Virus record (IMG/VR): IMGVR_UViG_2547132278_000011
Span: 1 to 12,971 of that record
DNA from: a virus
Lineage: Duplodnaviria; Heunggongvirae; Uroviricota; Caudoviricetes
Reading direction: 5' to 3' (one strand)
Length of the DNA stretch: 12,971 nt
Shown: piece after piece, positions 3,445-12,971 of the stretch
Numbering within the stretch: the first letter of the stretch is position 1
How the letters are laid out: each line of letters opens with the position of its first letter
Notes under the pieces: model-generated
Databases searched by the model: none
Told to the model about the DNA's origin: nothing
Seen by the model: only the letters and a program-made list of their open reading frames with translations
Translations under genes and position numbers: made by a program

Positions 3445-5139
3445 TTAATTATTAAGCAATCTGCTCACACGTAGTTTGTTAAGACTTGATCTAGAGGCCA
3501 GTTTCGTTAATGCACCTATTGCTTTATTCGTGATTTTTTGCTGTTCTTCTGTTAGTTCTTGCATACTTTTGAATCTGAGCAACCCCTTTCTCACTAAATC
3601 CAAAGCATCCTGATTGCGGGATAATATCCACTTTAAATAATCATCTTCAGAGAAACTGTTAAGATATGCTATGTCACTATGATTAAATTTGCCTTCAATT
3701 ATTTTGTATAAAACATTCTCTAAATTAGTCTCTTCAGGCTTCTTATCCATCAATTTTTTTTGAATTAGCAGACCTAACTTTTCGTTACCAAATATCTCTA
3801 CATACAAATTCCGAAAAGCAGTATAAGCATCATCTTGGCTAACAAAGGCATCTGCATATGCCTCTATATAACTATCACAATCAATCTCCAATCTATTTAA
3901 GATATCAATCAAGCCTATGAAGTGAGCAACAGGTATGTGTGAAAGATTGTCGTTAATTACACATTTTATCTTAGAAATAAACTCAGATTCATTGTCCTTG
4001 AATGAGTCACTAAAAATATCCCAAACATTGTTAACCTCACATAAAGCCTTGTGTTCTTTATATTGTTTATTTTTTTCTTCTATTATACCTCGAATATTGC
4101 TTTCAGTAGAAAGATAACCATTCTTGAGATAAAAATCTATGTCATCATCGAAAGCAATTTCCGCTCGTTCATAAATAATATCAAGACTATTAATAAATGA
4201 ATATACAGAATCATCCTTTTTATCATCTAACATGTAATCAAATACATGTATGTTTTTAATTGATTCTTTAAACAAGGCATAATCAACACCTGGAACACCA
4301 GAATAGTAAACCACTGAAAACAGAACCAATCTATTGATAAAACTTTCTCTAACCTTATCCTCTGCCAAGCTTAGCTCATTCCTAAGATTAACCAGAGATG
4401 TTTTTATTTTATTTAATATACGGATATTTTTAATGCCTAAGTCATTTGCTAAGACTTTTAACAAAAGAAAATCAGAATCAGTTTCATAAAAAACTTTACG
4501 TAAGTTCTTCTCAGGCGTAGGATCGTATTTTATTTCGACATCAATTACTTTTTCTCTGTACTCTAAAAACTGTTTTTTTGCAGTTTCATCATGTAAATTA
4601 TCTTCATTTAAAATTAGAACAACTTTGCAACCTTTTCTTCTTGCTAATTCATCAATTACCCCCATAATTTCTTTAACTTCTAGCGAATTACCTTTTCTTT
4701 CAACATCATCAATACAAACCAAATAATTATTAACAAATTTATACTCAAGAGATGACAGCAGGTTATCTGTTTTGAACCCAAAAAAATCGTTCTTTCCGAA
4801 ATGTATTAAAAATTTTGACAAGGAGTTGTATTTCAACCATCCCCAAAACCCATTTCTATAACGAATCATAGTTCGATCCGTTTCAGATAAAATTAGTTCT
4901 TTATATTTCTTTTCATTAATTGGTGTGGCACAATGATAAAGAGTTTTTTTAATATCACCAATAGAGTTAACCCCAAACAAAGAAACATACGAATATGCAT
5001 TAAAATCTAATCCTTCAGAATGCTTAGTATAAAAACTATTCCAATAATGAGTTTTACCAACGCCCCAATCTCCTTTTATGACGGCAACCCGATGATCTGA
5101 AACTAGAAAATTTTTTAGAAATGATTCTATCGATTCCAT
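3445..5139 (-). CDS. KAP-like P-loop NTPase, soluble, with a ~370-aa C-terminal helical domain of unknown function; candidate horizontally acquired defence/abortive-infection gene
   Basis: 564 aa from the ATG at 5139 (the ORF-track start at 5148 is TTG). Walker A VIKGDWGVGKTHYW (KAP-type G-x-WG-x-GKT), Walker B-like LVCIDDVERK, then VVLILNED. No hydrophobic transmembrane helices between Walker A and B. Sampled 60-nt lines give 23-25% G+C (for example 4381-4440 = 14/60) against about 53% in the neighbouring parA region (5701-5760 = 32/60). Confidence 0.65.
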   Translation of the reverse strand: MESIESFLKNFLVSDHRVAVIKGDWGVGKTHYWNSFYTKHSEGLDFNAYSYVSLFGVNSIGDIKKTLYHCATPINEKKYKELILSETDRTMIRYRNGFWGWLKYNSLSKFLIHFGKNDFFGFKTDNLLSSLEYKFVNNYLVCIDDVERKGNSLEVKEIMGVIDELARRKGCKVVLILNEDNLHDETAKKQFLEYREKVIDVEIKYDPTPEKNLRKVFYETDSDFLLLKVLANDLGIKNIRILNKIKTSLVNLRNELSLAEDKVRESFINRLVLFSVVYYSGVPGVDYALFKESIKNIHVFDYMLDDKKDDSVYSFINSLDIIYERAEIAFDDDIDFYLKNGYLSTESNIRGIIEEKNKQYKEHKALCEVNNVWDIFSDSFKDNESEFISKIKCVINDNLSHIPVAHFIGLIDILNRLEIDCDSYIEAYADAFVSQDDAYTAFRNLYVEIFGNEKLGLLIQKKLMDKKPEETNLENVLYKIIEGKFNHSDIAYLNSFSEDDYLKWILSRNQDALDLVRKGLLRFKSMQELTEEQQKITNKAIGALTKLASRSSLNKLRVSRLLNN

Positions 5140-5160
5140 TAGTATCAATCCTTTAATTCA

Positions 5161-5190: not shown

Positions 5191-5550
5191 TCAACCTTTC
5201 TTCATCAACTCTCGTTTAATTTCATCGGTACGCATCGTAACGTCGGCAGCTGTGATCGCCTCGTTAAGCTTCACGATGTCCTCGATTTCCTGCGGTGACT
5301 TCTCTGCCAGATGGAAAATGGCTGCTCGAATCACGTCAGAACGAGTGAACTTCTCGAAGCGAGGGATGAACTTCATCATCTCCAGCAGTTCGAAGTATTC
5401 GTCTTCCAGTGACATTGTGCGGCTTTTAATTTTCTCTTTGCCACGAGTCGGGCGTCCCTGTGGTCTGACTGGTTGGCGCAAAGGAGTTGTGTTCTTAGCC
5501 GGTGCATCAGGCTCTTTGCGCTTTGCTAGGTCACCCATTTTCATGGACAT
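5191..5550 (-). CDS. Small partition/centromere-binding-like protein (ParG-like, putative ribbon-helix-helix) coupled to ParA
   Basis: 119 aa. Basic, Pro/Arg-rich flexible N-terminus (KRKEPDAPAKNTTPLRQPVRPQGRPTRGKEK) followed by a possible RHH segment (RTMSLEDEYFELLEMM). Its ATG overlaps the parA stop by one base (TAATG at 5548-5552). Confidence 0.55.
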   Translation of the reverse strand: MSMKMGDLAKRKEPDAPAKNTTPLRQPVRPQGRPTRGKEKIKSRTMSLEDEYFELLEMMKFIPRFEKFTRSDVIRAAIFHLAEKSPQEIEDIVKLNEAITAADVTMRTDEIKRELMKKG

Positions 5551-6218: not shown

Positions 6219-6366
6219 TGGAGAGTTCCCTTTGCGTATATAATTATCGTCTGAAACAACTTGTTTTCTTATATGTGATATAGCCTAAATGCCTACGGCT
6301 GTGGTGTAAAGGTTAAATGGTAGGTGCTGCCTTAGAATTTTTAGGCGAGAATCAATGGCTGTTAAC

Positions 6367-6389
6367 AAAAAAGGCGACCAAAGTCGCCT
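6367..6389 (-). terminator. Rho-independent terminator for the minus-strand two-gene operon
   Basis: GC-rich stem ggcgac (6373-6378) / gtcgcc (6383-6388) with a 4-nt loop; on the minus strand it is followed by UUUUUU (6372-6367), directly after the stop of the 250-aa gene at 6395-6397. An A-run/T-run on both sides means it could act in both directions. Confidence 0.6.
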
Positions 6390-6394
6390 GATTT

Positions 6395-7147
6395 TTAATC
6401 TTTTAGGTATAAACCTACTGGAGTTCTTGTTTTGCGGGAGATGATAAGTACGATAAATTTCTGAACGTTAACTTGCACTTTGTTTGGGAGCCAAGAGCTT
6501 AACTCTGCATCAAGCAACAATCCTCTGTTCCACGGCAAAAATCCGGTTTCTTTCCCCATCCCGTACTCACCTAACACATCCTCGAACGTTTCTGTTTTGG
6601 CATTGTATATACGCACATCGCCGGTTCGCATGAGAGGCCCTGCCCAGATCTTAGCACCAGGAATGGTTTGTGTATCGTCGCAGACTAAATGCTCATACCA
6701 ATGAAGAAGAAAGAGATAGGTACGGTGACACAATCCTCGCTGACGACGCTCTCTGACAGTTTCGACACCGGCTACCTGGTAACATTCGATCTCATTACCG
6801 TCTTCAACAAAACTATATTCACGCAGAGCTATCCTACCAGCGATCGTATTTTTGTTTTCGTCCAGAAGCCCGGACTGGAGCACCTCTTTGATAATCTCTT
6901 CTTCAGGGGCATCTTCATCCGCTCGATCTAAGATGAATTCGCTCAGGTCGCCTTGGTCGCGCGCACCTACAAGTTCCATAGAGACATACAGGCAAATGTC
7001 ATCTTCTGGTTCAATGATTTCAATTTCTGAGATTTTATAGAGGGAGGCTTCATTGATAAGAAAGCCAAAACGAACAACACGAGTCTCCCCTTTATGAGGA
7101 AACTCGCTTAGATCTTTTGAATATGCGCTATCTAGTGTAGGAGCCAT
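6395..7147 (-). CDS. Hypothetical protein (250 aa), second gene of an insulated two-gene operon
   Basis: ATG at 7145-7147 lies 16 nt inside the 3' end of the upstream 127-aa gene (overlap ATGGCTCCTACACTAG), with an in-frame TGA 12 nt before it, so this is a separate, translationally coupled ORF. Acidic N-terminal third (DRADEDAPEEE). No recognisable catalytic motifs. Confidence 0.6.
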   Translation of the reverse strand: MAPTLDSAYSKDLSEFPHKGETRVVRFGFLINEASLYKISEIEIIEPEDDICLYVSMELVGARDQGDLSEFILDRADEDAPEEEIIKEVLQSGLLDENKNTIAGRIALREYSFVEDGNEIECYQVAGVETVRERRQRGLCHRTYLFLLHWYEHLVCDDTQTIPGAKIWAGPLMRTGDVRIYNAKTETFEDVLGEYGMGKETGFLPWNRGLLLDAELSSWLPNKVQVNVQKFIVLIISRKTRTPVGLYLKD

Positions 7148-7515
7148 TTTGTAGCAGAATCATCAGCCTTAACCGTGCTGACAATGCTACCATGATTGCG
7201 TAAGAAGCGGCGAATAGAATGTTCAATAACCTCCGAAAAAGCCTCGATAAAACGAGACAGCTCAGGGTACTGTTTAGCTGGCTTGACTACAAAACGAACA
7301 CGACCATTCAGGTAAATTGCTTCAGCTAATGGCTTCACGCTTGCACCAGCGCGCTCAACATCGTCTTTGAAGGTAACGATGAAGCGTGAGTCTTCCGGTT
7401 CAATAGCGTCATTATTGAGCTTACGTACTTCAAGCTTGTGCTGATTCAGCACATGAGTCTCGATAATACTCGTGCAATCGCGAATAGTTTGTATAGAACG
7501 TTTCTCGTTCAGCAT
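7132..7515 (-). CDS. Hypothetical protein (127 aa), first gene of the two-gene operon
   Basis: ATG at 7513-7515 with a strong Shine-Dalgarno AAGGTGG about 5 nt upstream. Preceded by a ~225-nt non-coding leader containing three hairpins. No recognisable motifs. Confidence 0.6.
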   Translation of the reverse strand: MLNEKRSIQTIRDCTSIIETHVLNQHKLEVRKLNNDAIEPEDSRFIVTFKDDVERAGASVKPLAEAIYLNGRVRFVVKPAKQYPELSRFIEAFSEVIEHSIRRFLRNHGSIVSTVKADDSATKWLLH

Positions 7516-7622
7516 GTGTCCACCTTAGCCGTTAACACAAGTGTCATTGCGGCACCCCTCTCGGGGTTGAAGGCTACGAGGATGCGTAGCCTGTATGTGC
7601 CCACTTACGTGGATGCCTAATA

Positions 7623-7651
7623 AATCTACATCAAATTACTAAATGATTCAA
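7623..7651 (-). promoter_or_regulatory. Candidate sigma70 promoter for the 127-aa/250-aa operon
   Basis: On the minus strand: TTGAAT (plus 7646-7651), 17-nt spacer, TAGATT (plus 7623-7628). Sits in AT-rich sequence about 110 nt upstream of the 7515 start. Pattern match only. Confidence 0.25.
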
Positions 7652-7739
7652 CATGAGCTTGAGTGAACAGGCGTGTATATGAGTGAAGATGCCATCTTTA
7701 GGATAAAAGGTAAACTGAGACCACTCATCAATCATCGAC

Positions 7740-7967
7740 TCAGTTCAGGTGCCCCCACTCACACAGCCTTTCACCTATCGTATTGTGGATAAGCAACTGT
7801 CGCTCCGTTTCCTCAGTCATAAAATCCTCTCTACTCACATAAATAGGATTTGCAGCATCGCAGAATAGCACGCCTGGAGCCTGCGTCTTAATCACGCACC
7901 CATTTATCAAACAGCTCGCGATGAACACCAGAGGCATCTTTTTGCCGCACTTCATTAACCGTTTCAT
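7740..7967 (-). CDS. Putative o-spanin-like outer-membrane lipoprotein (Rz1-like), overlapping the 3' end of the upstream gene in a different frame
   Basis: From the internal ATG at 7965-7967: MKRLMKCGKKMPLVFIASC... gives a basic n-region, a short hydrophobic core and a lipobox-like IASC. The mature part carries extra Cys residues. Overlaps 7888-7967 of the i-spanin-like gene out of frame. Start uncertain (ATGs also at 7976, 7955, 7937). Confidence 0.4.
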   Translation of the reverse strand: MKRLMKCGKKMPLVFIASCLINGCVIKTQAPGVLFCDAANPIYVSREDFMTEETERQLLIHNTIGERLCEWGHLN

Positions 7968-10415: not shown

Positions 10416-12971
10416 TTATTCTTTAGGTGAATTTAACTTCGTTTCAAGCTCCTCAACCCTTTTGGTCAATTGCTGAATATGATGAATGAGTGGTACAACC
10501 AAACGCTCATACATCACTCCTTCAGCGACCATACCATTTGAGGAAATATCTTCTGGAGAATCATTATTTGTTGGTTCACGCCAATGGACATATTGCGGGG
10601 CAATCTCACCAACCTCTTCAGCAATAAGGCCGTAATACCCCCAATCCTTTCGGTCACCTCGACAAATTGAACGATACCAAACAGGTCTTAATGACAAAAG
10701 TTCATCAGCATATCGATCTTGTAATGTTTCAATATCCTTTTTATAGCGCCTTGAAGACGTTGAACGCCAAACTGTATTGATACCTGGGTTTGGATCAATG
10801 TACATATTGGCACCGCTAGTAGTTGTGCCAATATCCCATATAGCAAACCCTCCACTACCGCCTGATTTGACAACCAGTGTTTCAGCAACAATATCCAGGT
10901 TGCCACTATAGCCTGTCAGTGATGATCTGCTTGCATAGGAACTTAGAAGGTTTGCTACCTCTGTTTTCGTGTAAGCATTAAGGTTAGCCGCAGTCAAAGT
11001 TATATCGGCAGAGCCATCAAACGCCACACCAGCAATTTTCCTTGCTGTCTGCAATTTTGTGGCGGTTGCGGCATTACCAGTAGTGTTCTGATTACCAGTT
11101 GTATTCACACCAGGGATTGAATCCTTAGCGGTATATACCTGCGCCCACGCTGACCATGCCGCACCTGTGTAATCTCTTCGGGAGCGAATGAAAACCGGCG
11201 CATGTGCACCGCTCGTACCACTCCAGCCAATAAGCAACTCGCCCTCACCAGCAGCACTCGCACCTTTCATGTGCAATACGTTGCCATACGTGGTCGGGTA
11301 GCTATTGTTGTACGCCTCATACATTTGAATGCCAGCAGTGCCTTGAGTAGAGCCGCTTAACGCCGTAACTCGGCCACGAGATACCAATGTATTAATGTTG
11401 ATATCGCCTGAGCCATCAAACTTAACACCATTGATGTTTCTCGCTGTTTGCAACTTCGTAGCTGTTGAAGCATTACCGTTCAAACTACCATTTACGCCAC
11501 CAGTAACATTTAGTCCATTACCAATGGACACAGCACCGCTGGTATTGTTAATTGTAATCGGTCGCAAACCGTTCCATGAACCTAATGTGTCTCCTGATGC
11601 TGTTAGCAGGAAATATGTGTTCGCCCCATCATTACGGATAAAGAACCCAAAGTTACCGTAAGCAATGCGGAAACCATTTGCATATTTTGAAACGATCTCA
11701 CCAGAAGACGTTAACCCTCCAGATAATGTGCCACCTGAAAGCGGTAATGCTCCTACATCAGAAGCTGTTGGTTTGTTTCTGGTGTTATAAGAACGACGCC
11801 AGCCTGGCGCATAATCACTTCCATTGTACACATAAATAAATTCCGCATTATTAACACCACCATGACCCGATGTTGTTGTCGTTGTAACACGAATAGTGTA
11901 ATGGCTTGTTGCCTTATTACTAAACACCTCAATCACGGAACCAGATAGATCGATCCTACCGCAACCAGTGTCGTCTATATAATTATTGTTGGCGTAAGCC
12001 CATGAGCACCGTGCAATCCAATATTTGTTTGAAAATGCACCCTGATTATTTAGCCACGTTATAAACTGAGCAGTCGTAAATGCTGTTCCGTTACCACTAT
12101 TTAACCATCCGGCGGCAGCGGTTGGTGCGTTTATATCAGCCGGCTGAGGCATAAATCCAGTCGTGTAAACCTGCTCCCAACCACTTTCAAAACCATAGCC
12201 ATCTCTTGAGGAACGGTAGAACAGACCACCATTTTTATAGTGAGCTTTAATTTGAAGCGTACGGCAACTACCTACACCGGTATAAAAGTTGGCAAGAATA
12301 TAACTAGCGCCTGCTCTAGTTACATTGTAAGCACCAGATTCAGCATTCCACGGCACGCCACCATCAGCATCCGCATATGACCCTGTTGCCCTTCTTGCGA
12401 AAGCGGCAACATGCGCAGCGGTTAAAGTGATATCAGTAGAACCATCAAATGGAACACCGGATATTTTTCTTGCAGTCTGAAGTTTTGTAGCAGTTGCAGC
12501 ATTACCAGTGGTGTTCTGATTACCCGTAGTGTTTACACCTGGAAGGTTAATATTTGCAGAACCGTCGAAAACAACTCCACCGATAGATCTTGCCGTCTGC
12601 AATTTCGTGGCTGTACTTGCATTACCATTCAATGAACCAGTTAATCCACCTGTAACAGACAACGGACCTGAAACTGTTCCTCCGGTTGTTGGCAGTGCTC
12701 CAATATCTAACGGCGTCGGTTTCTGATGTGTGCTATACATCGTATAAACAACACCATCGGTAACGCTGGAAGGCTTACTCGCTGAATATGTTGGCGAGGT
12801 ATAAATAGAAACTGTCGCATTTGCAGTACAATCCCAATGGATATTTACACGAGTCGCATAATTGCCAATCTCAACGTAAATATCATATGTATCGCCGGAT
12901 GTGTTGATCCAGGCGAAATTCGTTAATCCGACAGCTGTACGCTTCCACAAAGCACCTGTAATCCCTTTGGG
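10416..12971 (-). CDS. Phage tail fibre protein, 5'-partial (N-terminus beyond the window), with repeated tail-fibre motifs and a C-terminal peptidase S74-type intramolecular chaperone domain
   Basis: The frame is open from the window edge; the ORF-track start at 12950 is a TTG artefact. Four copies of the N-A/T-S/A-TATKLQTAR motif, each followed by ...FDGS...; two copies of a larger module PGVNTTGNQNTTGNAATATKLQTARKI-GV-FDGS-DITLTAA. C-terminal SSRRYKKDIETL ... GLIAEEVGEIAP ... VEELETKL matches the conserved Ser/Lys auto-cleavage region of S74 chaperone domains as I recall it. Confidence 0.9.
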   Translation of the reverse strand, partial: PKGITGALWKRTAVGLTNFAWINTSGDTYDIYVEIGNYATRVNIHWDCTANATVSIYTSPTYSASKPSSVTDGVVYTMYSTHQKPTPLDIGALPTTGGTVSGPLSVTGGLTGSLNGNASTATKLQTARSIGGVVFDGSANINLPGVNTTGNQNTTGNAATATKLQTARKISGVPFDGSTDITLTAAHVAAFARRATGSYADADGGVPWNAESGAYNVTRAGASYILANFYTGVGSCRTLQIKAHYKNGGLFYRSSRDGYGFESGWEQVYTTGFMPQPADINAPTAAAGWLNSGNGTAFTTAQFITWLNNQGAFSNKYWIARCSWAYANNNYIDDTGCGRIDLSGSVIEVFSNKATSHYTIRVTTTTTSGHGGVNNAEFIYVYNGSDYAPGWRRSYNTRNKPTASDVGALPLSGGTLSGGLTSSGEIVSKYANGFRIAYGNFGFFIRNDGANTYFLLTASGDTLGSWNGLRPITINNTSGAVSIGNGLNVTGGVNGSLNGNASTATKLQTARNINGVKFDGSGDININTLVSRGRVTALSGSTQGTAGIQMYEAYNNSYPTTYGNVLHMKGASAAGEGELLIGWSGTSGAHAPVFIRSRRDYTGAAWSAWAQVYTAKDSIPGVNTTGNQNTTGNAATATKLQTARKIAGVAFDGSADITLTAANLNAYTKTEVANLLSSYASRSSLTGYSGNLDIVAETLVVKSGGSGGFAIWDIGTTTSGANMYIDPNPGINTVWRSTSSRRYKKDIETLQDRYADELLSLRPVWYRSICRGDRKDWGYYGLIAEEVGEIAPQYVHWREPTNNDSPEDISSNGMVAEGVMYERLVVPLIHHIQQLTKRVEELETKLNSPKE

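Follow-up and report, generated by a model that had tools for sequence, protein, structure and literature searches.

A mobile two-gene cassette with a conserved five-helix leader in SSU5-like phage-plasmids as a candidate toxin-antitoxin-like conflict module

Two overlapping genes, designated here A and B and encoded on the minus strand of the 12,971-nucleotide (nt) viral record IMGVR_UViG_2547132278_000011 (this whole stretch is referred to below as the window), constitute together with their promoter, RNA leader and terminator a single expression unit that is autonomous and moves horizontally as a cassette. Its leader RNA is structured and conserved, under tighter constraint than the two proteins encoded behind it, and a candidate new regulatory RNA motif. 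Judged by its predicted model, protein B has a very divergent GNAT (acetyltransferase) fold, while the small basic protein A appears to resemble part of the same fold. With confidence slightly short of even we read the pair as a toxin-antitoxin (TA)-like conflict module, i.e., an addiction or competition device of the phage-plasmid and possibly an abortive-infection defense, in which B is the effector and A its coupled partner. The elements of the cassette are as follows.

7651-7623, minus strand: sigma-70-type promoter (-35 TTGAAT at 7651-7646, 17-nt spacer, -10 TAGATT at 7628-7623)
7601-7612, minus strand: H1, 5′-terminal hairpin of the mRNA, CCAC-GUAA-GUGG, whose 5′ arm can instead pair with GGUGG of the Shine-Dalgarno (SD) sequence
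7572-7591, minus strand: H2, near-invariant GGCUACG-CAUCCU-CGUAGCC, of which the 3′ half and the following CU(C/U) are invariant
7554-7567, minus strand: H3, ACCCC-GAGA-GGGGU
7528-7553, minus strand: H4, GCCG (7553-7550) paired with CGGC (7531-7528) and enclosing H5
7546-7533, minus strand: H5, small hairpin inside H4, with arms that vary and pairing that is kept
7526-7520, minus strand: SD sequence of gene A, AAGGTGG
7515-7132, minus strand: gene A, 127 amino acids (aa), isoelectric point (pI) 8.8, invariant N-terminal RSIQTIRDCT
7147-7132, minus strand: A/B overlap of 16 nt, ATGGCTCCTACACTAG, with the ATG of B 13 nt before the TAG of A
7147-6395, minus strand: gene B, 250 aa, pI 4.75, predicted divergent GNAT-like fold, invariant N-terminal MAPTL
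6389-6364, minus strand: intrinsic terminator, AGGCGAC-UUUG-GUCGCCU followed by UUUUUUGUU

Genomic Setting and Layout of the Cassette

The window belongs to an SSU5-like phage-plasmid. Over 1.7 kb around A-B it is 100% identical to many plasmids of E. coli and Shigella, mostly of ~110 kb, and the gene order of its flanks is shared with the phages SSU5 (of Salmonella) and PhiR41_1 and Cyrano (both of E. coli); this particular A-B allele resides on plasmids of 78 among 5,426 complete E. coli genomes. Judged by synteny with SSU5 and Cyrano, holin, endolysin and Rz/Rz1 genes lie upstream of the pair and ParA downstream, which agrees with the location between lysis and partition genes given in a preliminary description of this DNA. 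Its account of the coding part was equally accurate: both open reading frames (ORFs), of 127 and 250 aa, were found with an overlap of exactly 16 nt, and an SD sequence precedes A only, none being present within 20 nt of the start of B. The sequence CGGCTAAGGTGGA(A/C)ACATG around the SD of A is invariant in 14 aligned short-type leaders, and Dickeya-type leaders carry CAGC in place of CGGC next to it.

The overlap of A and B is a termination-reinitiation coupling site, present with the same length of 16 nt in Erwinia, Dickeya, Klebsiella, Pectobacterium and SSU5; junctions in other alleles are TAAATG, TAGATG, a 13-nt overlap or a 22-nt gap. With B lying in frame -1 relative to A, a run of four A in front of its ATG and a GNAT-like look of both halves, one may ask if A and B are a single gene, either one that a sequencing frameshift has broken or one read through by programmed -1 frameshifting at A-AAA-TGG as a tandem GNAT-like fusion. 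The identical split in more than 100 plasmids and in distant genera speaks against it, and the two frames stay separate in dozens of independent genomes, with or without overlap. Bases preceding the ATG of B (ACAAAATGG, CCAAATGG, ATAAATGG, GAGAAATGG) are neither slippery nor conserved; the TAAATG, TAGATG and 22-nt-gap alleles have stop-then-start junctions in the same or in another frame; TGA TGA stands in the frame of B just upstream of it; and B starts with MAP(T/S)L whatever the type of junction. Variation of the junctions and the unconserved, non-slippery context of the start codon effectively exclude the single-gene explanation.

The intrinsic terminator expected after B was found by a terminator scan, which detects a 7-bp GC-rich stem (6389-6372) followed by TTTTTTGTT and starting 5 nt past the stop codon of B; equivalent terminators lie 3′ of B in SSU5, PhiR41_1 and PhiR12_1. 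The same hairpin (6364-6389) is bordered by an A-run and a T-run on opposite sides, is also called by the scan on the plus strand, and may from its sequence act in both directions. Directly after it a promoter-like site (6365-6337) precedes parA. Because the scan of the window revealed no terminator between the lysis genes and the A-B promoter, the unit is insulated at its 3′ end only, so that the insulation assumed in the preliminary description holds for one of the two sides.

The promoter proposed at 7651-7623 matches the consensus in 8 of 12 positions, which is under the threshold of a generic scan, and was missed by it. It is nevertheless credible, because TTG(C/A)AT-17-(G)TA(G/A)ATT is present in all 22 distinct leaders collected from unrelated contexts. 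The predicted transcription start falls at ~7617-7614. The gap between the stop of the Rz1-like ORF (7740) and the start of A (7515) spans 224 nt, and the transcribed leader measures ~100 nt in place of the ~225 nt stated previously.

The Five-Helix Leader

An alignment across genomic contexts unexpectedly showed nucleotide-level conservation over ~150 nt upstream of A. The predicted 5′ untranslated region (5′UTR) of ~100 nt has a constant architecture of five helices, H1-H5, in which the SD sequence is left unpaired. H1 is a hairpin in nearly all leaders, assembled from at least nine stem sequences, some with G-U pairs, and it exceeds 500 shuffles in many lineages (p ≤ 0.01). For H3, compensatory changes affect four of seven pairs, with 100% of alignment cells paired and at least seven different stems. 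The four pairs of H4 are invariant, and its fifth pair reads A-U in Pectobacterium-type leaders. H2 follows another rule: because the 5′ arm has degenerated in the SSU5 and PhiR41 types with no compensatory changes, the sequence GCAUnCUCGUAGCCU itself, not the stem, is the constrained entity.

In a structure-anchored alignment of the leaders, 93.9% of cells pair; shuffles gave 81.5%, none of the 500 reaching the observed value, and slid partners 30-49%. This alignment was fitted to the hairpins and thereby favors structure. The fold of the window leader has an energy of -45.3 kcal/mol (z = -3.2), and in this minimum-energy fold the 5′ arm of H1 (CAUCCAC) pairs with the SD sequence and the start codon; such an alternative H1/SD pairing could gate translation. 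Comparison with Rfam 15 gave no match at gathering score in the window, and the sole match with E ≤ 10 in the 7450-7760 region was a chance one, to a small nucleolar RNA (E 3.5). The cassette brings with it a dedicated conserved 5′UTR without an Rfam counterpart.

Several leaders deviate from the common plan. Those of Erwinia/Dickeya type (L004 7420-7623; L007 7400-7620; L152/L172) contain between the 5′ arm of H4 and the SD sequence an extra 60-65 nt, which form additional strong hairpins, the remaining leader being conserved. The more distant PhiR12-type cassette has a different leader, likewise rich in hairpins; in PhiR12_1 (L003 230-360, 890-915) this unrelated leader includes a long hairpin followed by TTTTT, which is terminator-like and could by its sequence be an attenuator. 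An upstream ORF in the leader (ATGACA...) was discarded as a conserved feature, its ATG being missing in the SSU5, L143, L158 and Pectobacterium types.

Mobility of the Cassette and Diversity of Its Alleles

The pair, in most cases with its 16-nt overlap, is located between Rz1 and parA in SSU5, PhiR41_1 and many SSU5-like plasmids, adjoins the integrase in lambdoid PhiR12 phages and in a Citrobacter prophage, and lies among the tra genes of a Pectobacterium conjugative element. It also exists as lone two-gene islets, in Erwinia pyrifoliae between rep and gppA and in Dickeya fangzhongdai and Klebsiella aerogenes between housekeeping genes, with promoter and leader retained. Recurrence of the promoter-leader-A-B unit in phage-plasmids, integrase-adjacent prophages, a conjugative element and chromosomal islets strongly supports the view of a self-contained module expressed in the preliminary description. 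The association holds in the reverse direction as well: the leader motif is followed by A in 18 of 19 matches in a viral collection (the remaining one lies by chance within coding sequence) and in 22 of 22 matches in a metagenomic collection, with B present too in both collections wherever the contig continues. These scans used longer patterns; a 14-base pattern applied to contigs gave chance matches only.

The leader is by far the more conserved part. Plasmid pR7-S2K78-1 shares with the window a 144-nt promoter and leader segment with 98% identity, and its A and B proteins are 32% and 28% identical, respectively. For SSU5 the leader is 84% identical and codon-aligned DNA 51% (A) and 45% (B); the coding values come from codon-guided alignment, which replaced those inflated by a permissive nucleotide aligner. 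Some E. coli plasmids (L209 1601-1744, which is pR7-S2K78-1, and H107-H110) resemble the window only in this 144-nt segment of promoter and leader (97-98% identity), the similarity stopping near the start codon of A. This pattern suggests that recombination may swap coding alleles between the leader and parA.

In three cases (PhiR12, L186 and L202) B is disrupted and A is intact. In PhiR12_1 the interruption falls at a T7 homopolymer, with a frameshift, phase variation and a sequencing error as possible causes.

The Encoded Proteins

No function was assigned and no motif was recognized for either protein in the preliminary description, and indeed no curated family covers A or B. Missed there were the GNAT-like nature of B and the conservation of the structured leader, stronger than that of the proteins. 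The predicted structure of B contains a mixed alpha/beta GNAT core. Fold comparison of the A and B models returned HAT1 as their shared top match, together with N-terminal acetyltransferases, e.g., NatD and RimJ, and a BFVD fold search yielded weak GNAT-like matches only. The putative motif A of B is the loop RQRGLC (residues 134-139) between the strand and the helix equivalent to GNAT beta4/alpha3. It approximates the GNAT motif A, Q/RxxGxG/A, which binds the acyl-CoA pyrophosphate, and takes across the family the form [RHQ]xxG[LI][CMST] with a nearly invariant G (MGLGIA in the divergent pSLy3 allele); hhalign paired it with QGQGFG of KacT in a weak match (probability 0.3). The most conserved block of B, LVCDDxQTIPGAKIWAG (153-169), occupies the place expected for GNAT motif B. 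The HxxEH-like pattern noticed previously in HWYEHL did not survive comparison as a metallo-motif: H148 is N in most homologues, E151 varies, and H152 alone is invariant.

The family of B is small, its profile giving only 46 matches among 1.84 billion representative proteins. Over residues 95-184 this profile also matches domains that are repeated within proteins of 1,429-1,486 aa (full-library E from 2e-8 to 1e-3), with the common signature G(R/K)G(I/L)...L(V/I)SDxxQ(T/S)xxGxK(I/L)W. Compared with these domains, B has ~95 extra N-terminal residues and a long insert (182-229) that separates the two final strands of the GNAT-like core. Four such large metagenomic proteins (P0098, P0111, P0116 and P0118) contain two to three B-like domains each, and a ParB-like (ParBc_2) signal, DUF6934 and a Pfam-detected GNAT signal are each present in three of the four. 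An additional canonical GNAT domain is found in P0111 and P0118, and in P0098 a B-like domain (171-258) coincides with a weak Acetyltransf_1 match (162-257). P0098 (L177 10001-14290) is encoded on a 75-kb phage-like contig with genes for DnaJ, a ClpB-like protein, PolB (family-B polymerase) and an amidase. These large proteins resemble the polyvalent proteins described by Iyer et al. (2017), whose GNAT domains were predicted to modify host proteins and whose domains are shared with TA and polymorphic-toxin systems (PMC5512222). The A profile found nothing in them, and reuse of the B-like domain without A fits an effector employed without its self-protection partner.

Protein A is predicted to consist of an alpha/beta core, a long helix and a disordered tail. 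It is not a sequence paralogue of the N-terminal half of B, as hhalign found nothing and the likeness lies only in the predicted topologies. The RSIQTI motif is retained even in alleles with a different leader; the idea that it recognizes the invariant H2 is weakened by PhiR12-type A, which has RSIQTI and yet an unrelated leader. Neither Pfam (E ≤ 1) nor NCBIfam gave a match to A, and searches of PDB sequences with the profiles of both proteins produced chance matches only (E ≥ 0.38). A and B fall into PHROGs of unknown function, phrog_2594 and phrog_3307, and their homologues, named only "hypothetical protein", come from Enterobacterales and, more distantly, from Vibrio, Photobacterium and Xenorhabdus. 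Homology to phage structural or replication proteins, which would have spoken against the view taken in the preliminary description, was not seen.

Occupants of the Rz1-parA Interval

In SSU5-like phage-plasmids the interval between Rz1 and parA is a polymorphic hotspot with three kinds of occupants. The first is represented by several deeply divergent A-B alleles. The second, found in Cyrano and in ~16 of 40 sampled SSU5-like plasmids, is a TacA/DUF1778 antitoxin gene with a GNAT toxin gene, placed in the opposite orientation; the Cyrano antitoxin matches Pfam TacA1 at 8e-26. The third, present in pHCM2 of S. Typhi (L183 998-1549, plus strand) and in pCAV1741-110, is a lone ORF of 183 aa, very acidic, on the opposite strand and without a Pfam match.

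4302-5136 of L178 (Cyrano) and 988-1786 of L185: examples of the polymorphic Rz1-parA interval

In lysogens of Cyrano the two genes of the TA pair are transcribed 60- and 35-fold over the prophage background (PMC9928086), and therefore the interval carries genes expressed in lysogeny.

Functional Interpretation

A and B represent a small co-directional, coupled and autonomous gene pair scattered over mobile elements and chromosomal islets, as is usual for type II TA systems. Coupled autonomy, patchy spread, retention in chromosomes along with the promoter, allelic diversity between conserved flanks, interchange within the Rz1-parA interval and reuse of B alone are fitted best by a TA-like conflict module. 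B is taken as the effector because it is translatable only after A and is the gene found disrupted in PhiR12, L186 and L202. Of the toxin-antitoxin, defense and anti-defense functions that the preliminary description had listed as candidates, the first gains from the DUF1778/GNAT pair in the same interval of sister phage-plasmids, and anti-defense is the least favored of the three because the cassette persists as chromosomal islets.

We infer the following course of events. The cassette would be transcribed in lysogeny from its own sigma-70 promoter, and the folded leader would limit translation of A, probably via competing H1/SD or H2-CCUCU/SD pairings or via a bound factor. Ribosomes finishing A at TAG 7134-7132 would re-initiate at the SD-less AUG 7147-7145, so that B would never be made without A and its level would not exceed that of A. 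As an effector, B would transfer an acyl group to an essential component of the cell or phage, more likely a protein or small molecule than tRNA because B is acidic, and A, as a basic half-GNAT-like protein, would serve as its cognate neutralizer or regulatory partner. The module would stabilize the phage-plasmid, aid its competition with related incompatible elements and possibly abort phage infection.

A number of observations weigh against a TA-like module of this kind. Window B matches no Pfam or NCBIfam model, and thus no Pfam GNAT model; Acetyltransf_1 is detected in only 3 of 26 B homologues (E ≥ 0.074), and the hhalign comparison of B with KacT was not significant. The model of B has low confidence at residues 159-168 and 188-229 and describes the C-terminal third poorly, so that an intact active site is at most putative, and the acidic pI of 4.75 is unlike that of tRNA-acetylating GNAT toxins. 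No recognizable DNA-binding domain (ribbon-helix-helix (RHH), helix-turn-helix or similar) was seen in A, unlike in typical type II antitoxins. Among the defense models of PADLOC-DB 2.0, none matched B and one, PDC-S39, gave a weak partial match to A (E 0.013, 22 residues). The pHCM2 ORF is unrelated to the other occupants, and a common hotspot is no proof of common function. Finally, disrupted B genes are few, B has double the length of A, and the T7 homopolymer case is possibly a sequencing error.

The likeness between the two models permits another interpretation, in which A and B form a non-toxic heteromeric acyltransferase with B as the catalytic GNAT-like subunit and A as a pseudo-GNAT auxiliary. 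Such a moron product would modify a component of the host or of an incoming phage, giving lysogenic conversion, superinfection exclusion or anti-defense with no addiction. The shared HAT1, NatD and RimJ matches agree with this, coupling at a fixed ratio suits a stoichiometric complex, and B-like domains belong to proteins of the phage-delivered type that Iyer et al. predicted to modify host proteins (PMC5512222). Moron-like are also the own promoter and terminator and the position beside a Cor-like exclusion gene and the lysis genes. Yet hhalign detects no sequence relation between A and B, so strongly constrained a leader together with strict coupling suggests that the product is dangerous, it is a TA pair that takes the place of the cassette in the interval, and isolated promoter-bearing islets in the chromosomes of Erwinia, Dickeya and Klebsiella are hard to explain by an anti-defense factor. 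We regard a heteromeric enzyme as rather unlikely, while keeping it in serious consideration.

The polarity of the pair may also be the reverse, with small basic A as toxin and acidic GNAT-like B as antitoxin. A precedent is the E. coli operon TopAI(YjhX)-YjhQ, which has a long regulatory leader and encodes first a small toxin and then an antitoxin of the GNAT family. The charges of A (pI 8.8) and B (pI 4.75) fit this polarity, the RSIQTI N terminus of A is invariant and kept even with a different leader, and the long, tightly conserved 5′UTR directly controls translation of A. However, an antitoxin lacking an SD sequence, dependent on translation of the toxin and never exceeding its level would be poorly designed; the disrupted component is B, not A; polyvalent proteins reuse B-like domains, not A; and A has no Pfam match at E ≤ 1. 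This arrangement accordingly appears improbable.

Relation to Known Systems

GNAT-based two-gene conflict modules on plasmids and prophages are already known, but the A-B family does not qualify as a member of TacAT/KacAT. In common with the GNAT/DUF1778 type II systems TacAT, KacAT and AtaRT, it is a co-directional coupled pair in which the gene of the small protein precedes that of the GNAT-fold protein, it is plasmid- and prophage-borne, and a real member of that group sits in the identical Rz1-parA interval of Cyrano and many SSU5-like plasmids. The model of A is alpha/beta, not RHH/DUF1778, and A has no Pfam match; B is acidic, 250 aa long instead of ~175 (160-180), and without a Pfam GNAT match (Acetyltransf_1/7); and most of its alleles have C, M, S or T at position 6 of motif A. 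The operon further differs by its ~100-nt conserved five-helix leader and by its opposite orientation in the interval.

With TopAI(YjhX)-YjhQ the pair shares the order of a small gene and a GNAT-family gene and the long 5′ leader, and that operon shows TA behavior. A, having no Pfam match, is not of the YjhX family, and the polarity implied by coupling is opposite. Phage Mu likewise has, in its com-mom operon, a small gene that overlaps the start of a downstream gene for a GNAT-fold enzyme, and translation of the enzyme is controlled via mRNA structure. There is no sequence relation to com-mom, A is not a zinc finger, Mom is no better a match than generic GNATs, and chromosomal islets do not fit a role of DNA modification in anti-restriction. 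The GNAT domains of polyvalent proteins (Iyer, Burroughs, Anand, de Souza, Aravind 2017, PMC5512222) are related to B through alignment of residues 95-184 and the common signature, but those are domains of giant multi-effector proteins without an A-like part, whereas B stands alone with a partner and a leader.

Other Features of the Window

An ORF of 567 aa (3445-5148, minus strand) has a KAP-family P-loop NTPase domain (Pfam E 1.6e-5) and is sited between the partition and replication genes. Its GC content is 30.5% compared to 44-49% in its neighbors; it looks like a recent acquisition and is possibly defense-related. Just after parA, an ORF of 119 aa (5191-5550, minus strand) without a Pfam match is annotated in Cyrano as "RelE/ParE putative toxin"; judged by position, it is more likely a partition adaptor or centromere-binding protein. 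A tail-fiber ORF of 844 aa (10416-12950, minus strand) contains internal repeats, e.g., NTTGNQNTTGNAATATKLQTARK and GSLNGNASTATKLQTAR, each in more than one copy.

Significance

A broader proposal, which we consider speculative and on present evidence doubtful, would unite these findings as an unrecognized family of mobile conflict modules built on a split pseudo-dimeric GNAT, with catalytic B and half-GNAT A. The new cis-regulatory five-helix 5′UTR would both gate expression and anchor allele-swapping recombination, and the A-less multicopy B domains in polyvalent proteins of large phages would point to a conserved cellular target of acylation.

SSU5-like phage-plasmids are common in E. coli, Shigella, Salmonella Typhi, Klebsiella and Enterobacter, and a preprint ties these elements to multidrug-resistant lineages (10.1101/2025.09.12.675607). 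If A-B is an addiction or exclusion module, it would help to explain their persistence and competition and would add to TA biology a new type of partner and a new, non-tRNA-like GNAT effector. The leader provides a natural experiment, in which identical leaders drive proteins that are 28-32% identical, and the link to polyvalent proteins may help to identify what is targeted by the B-like domain, which large phages use in several copies.

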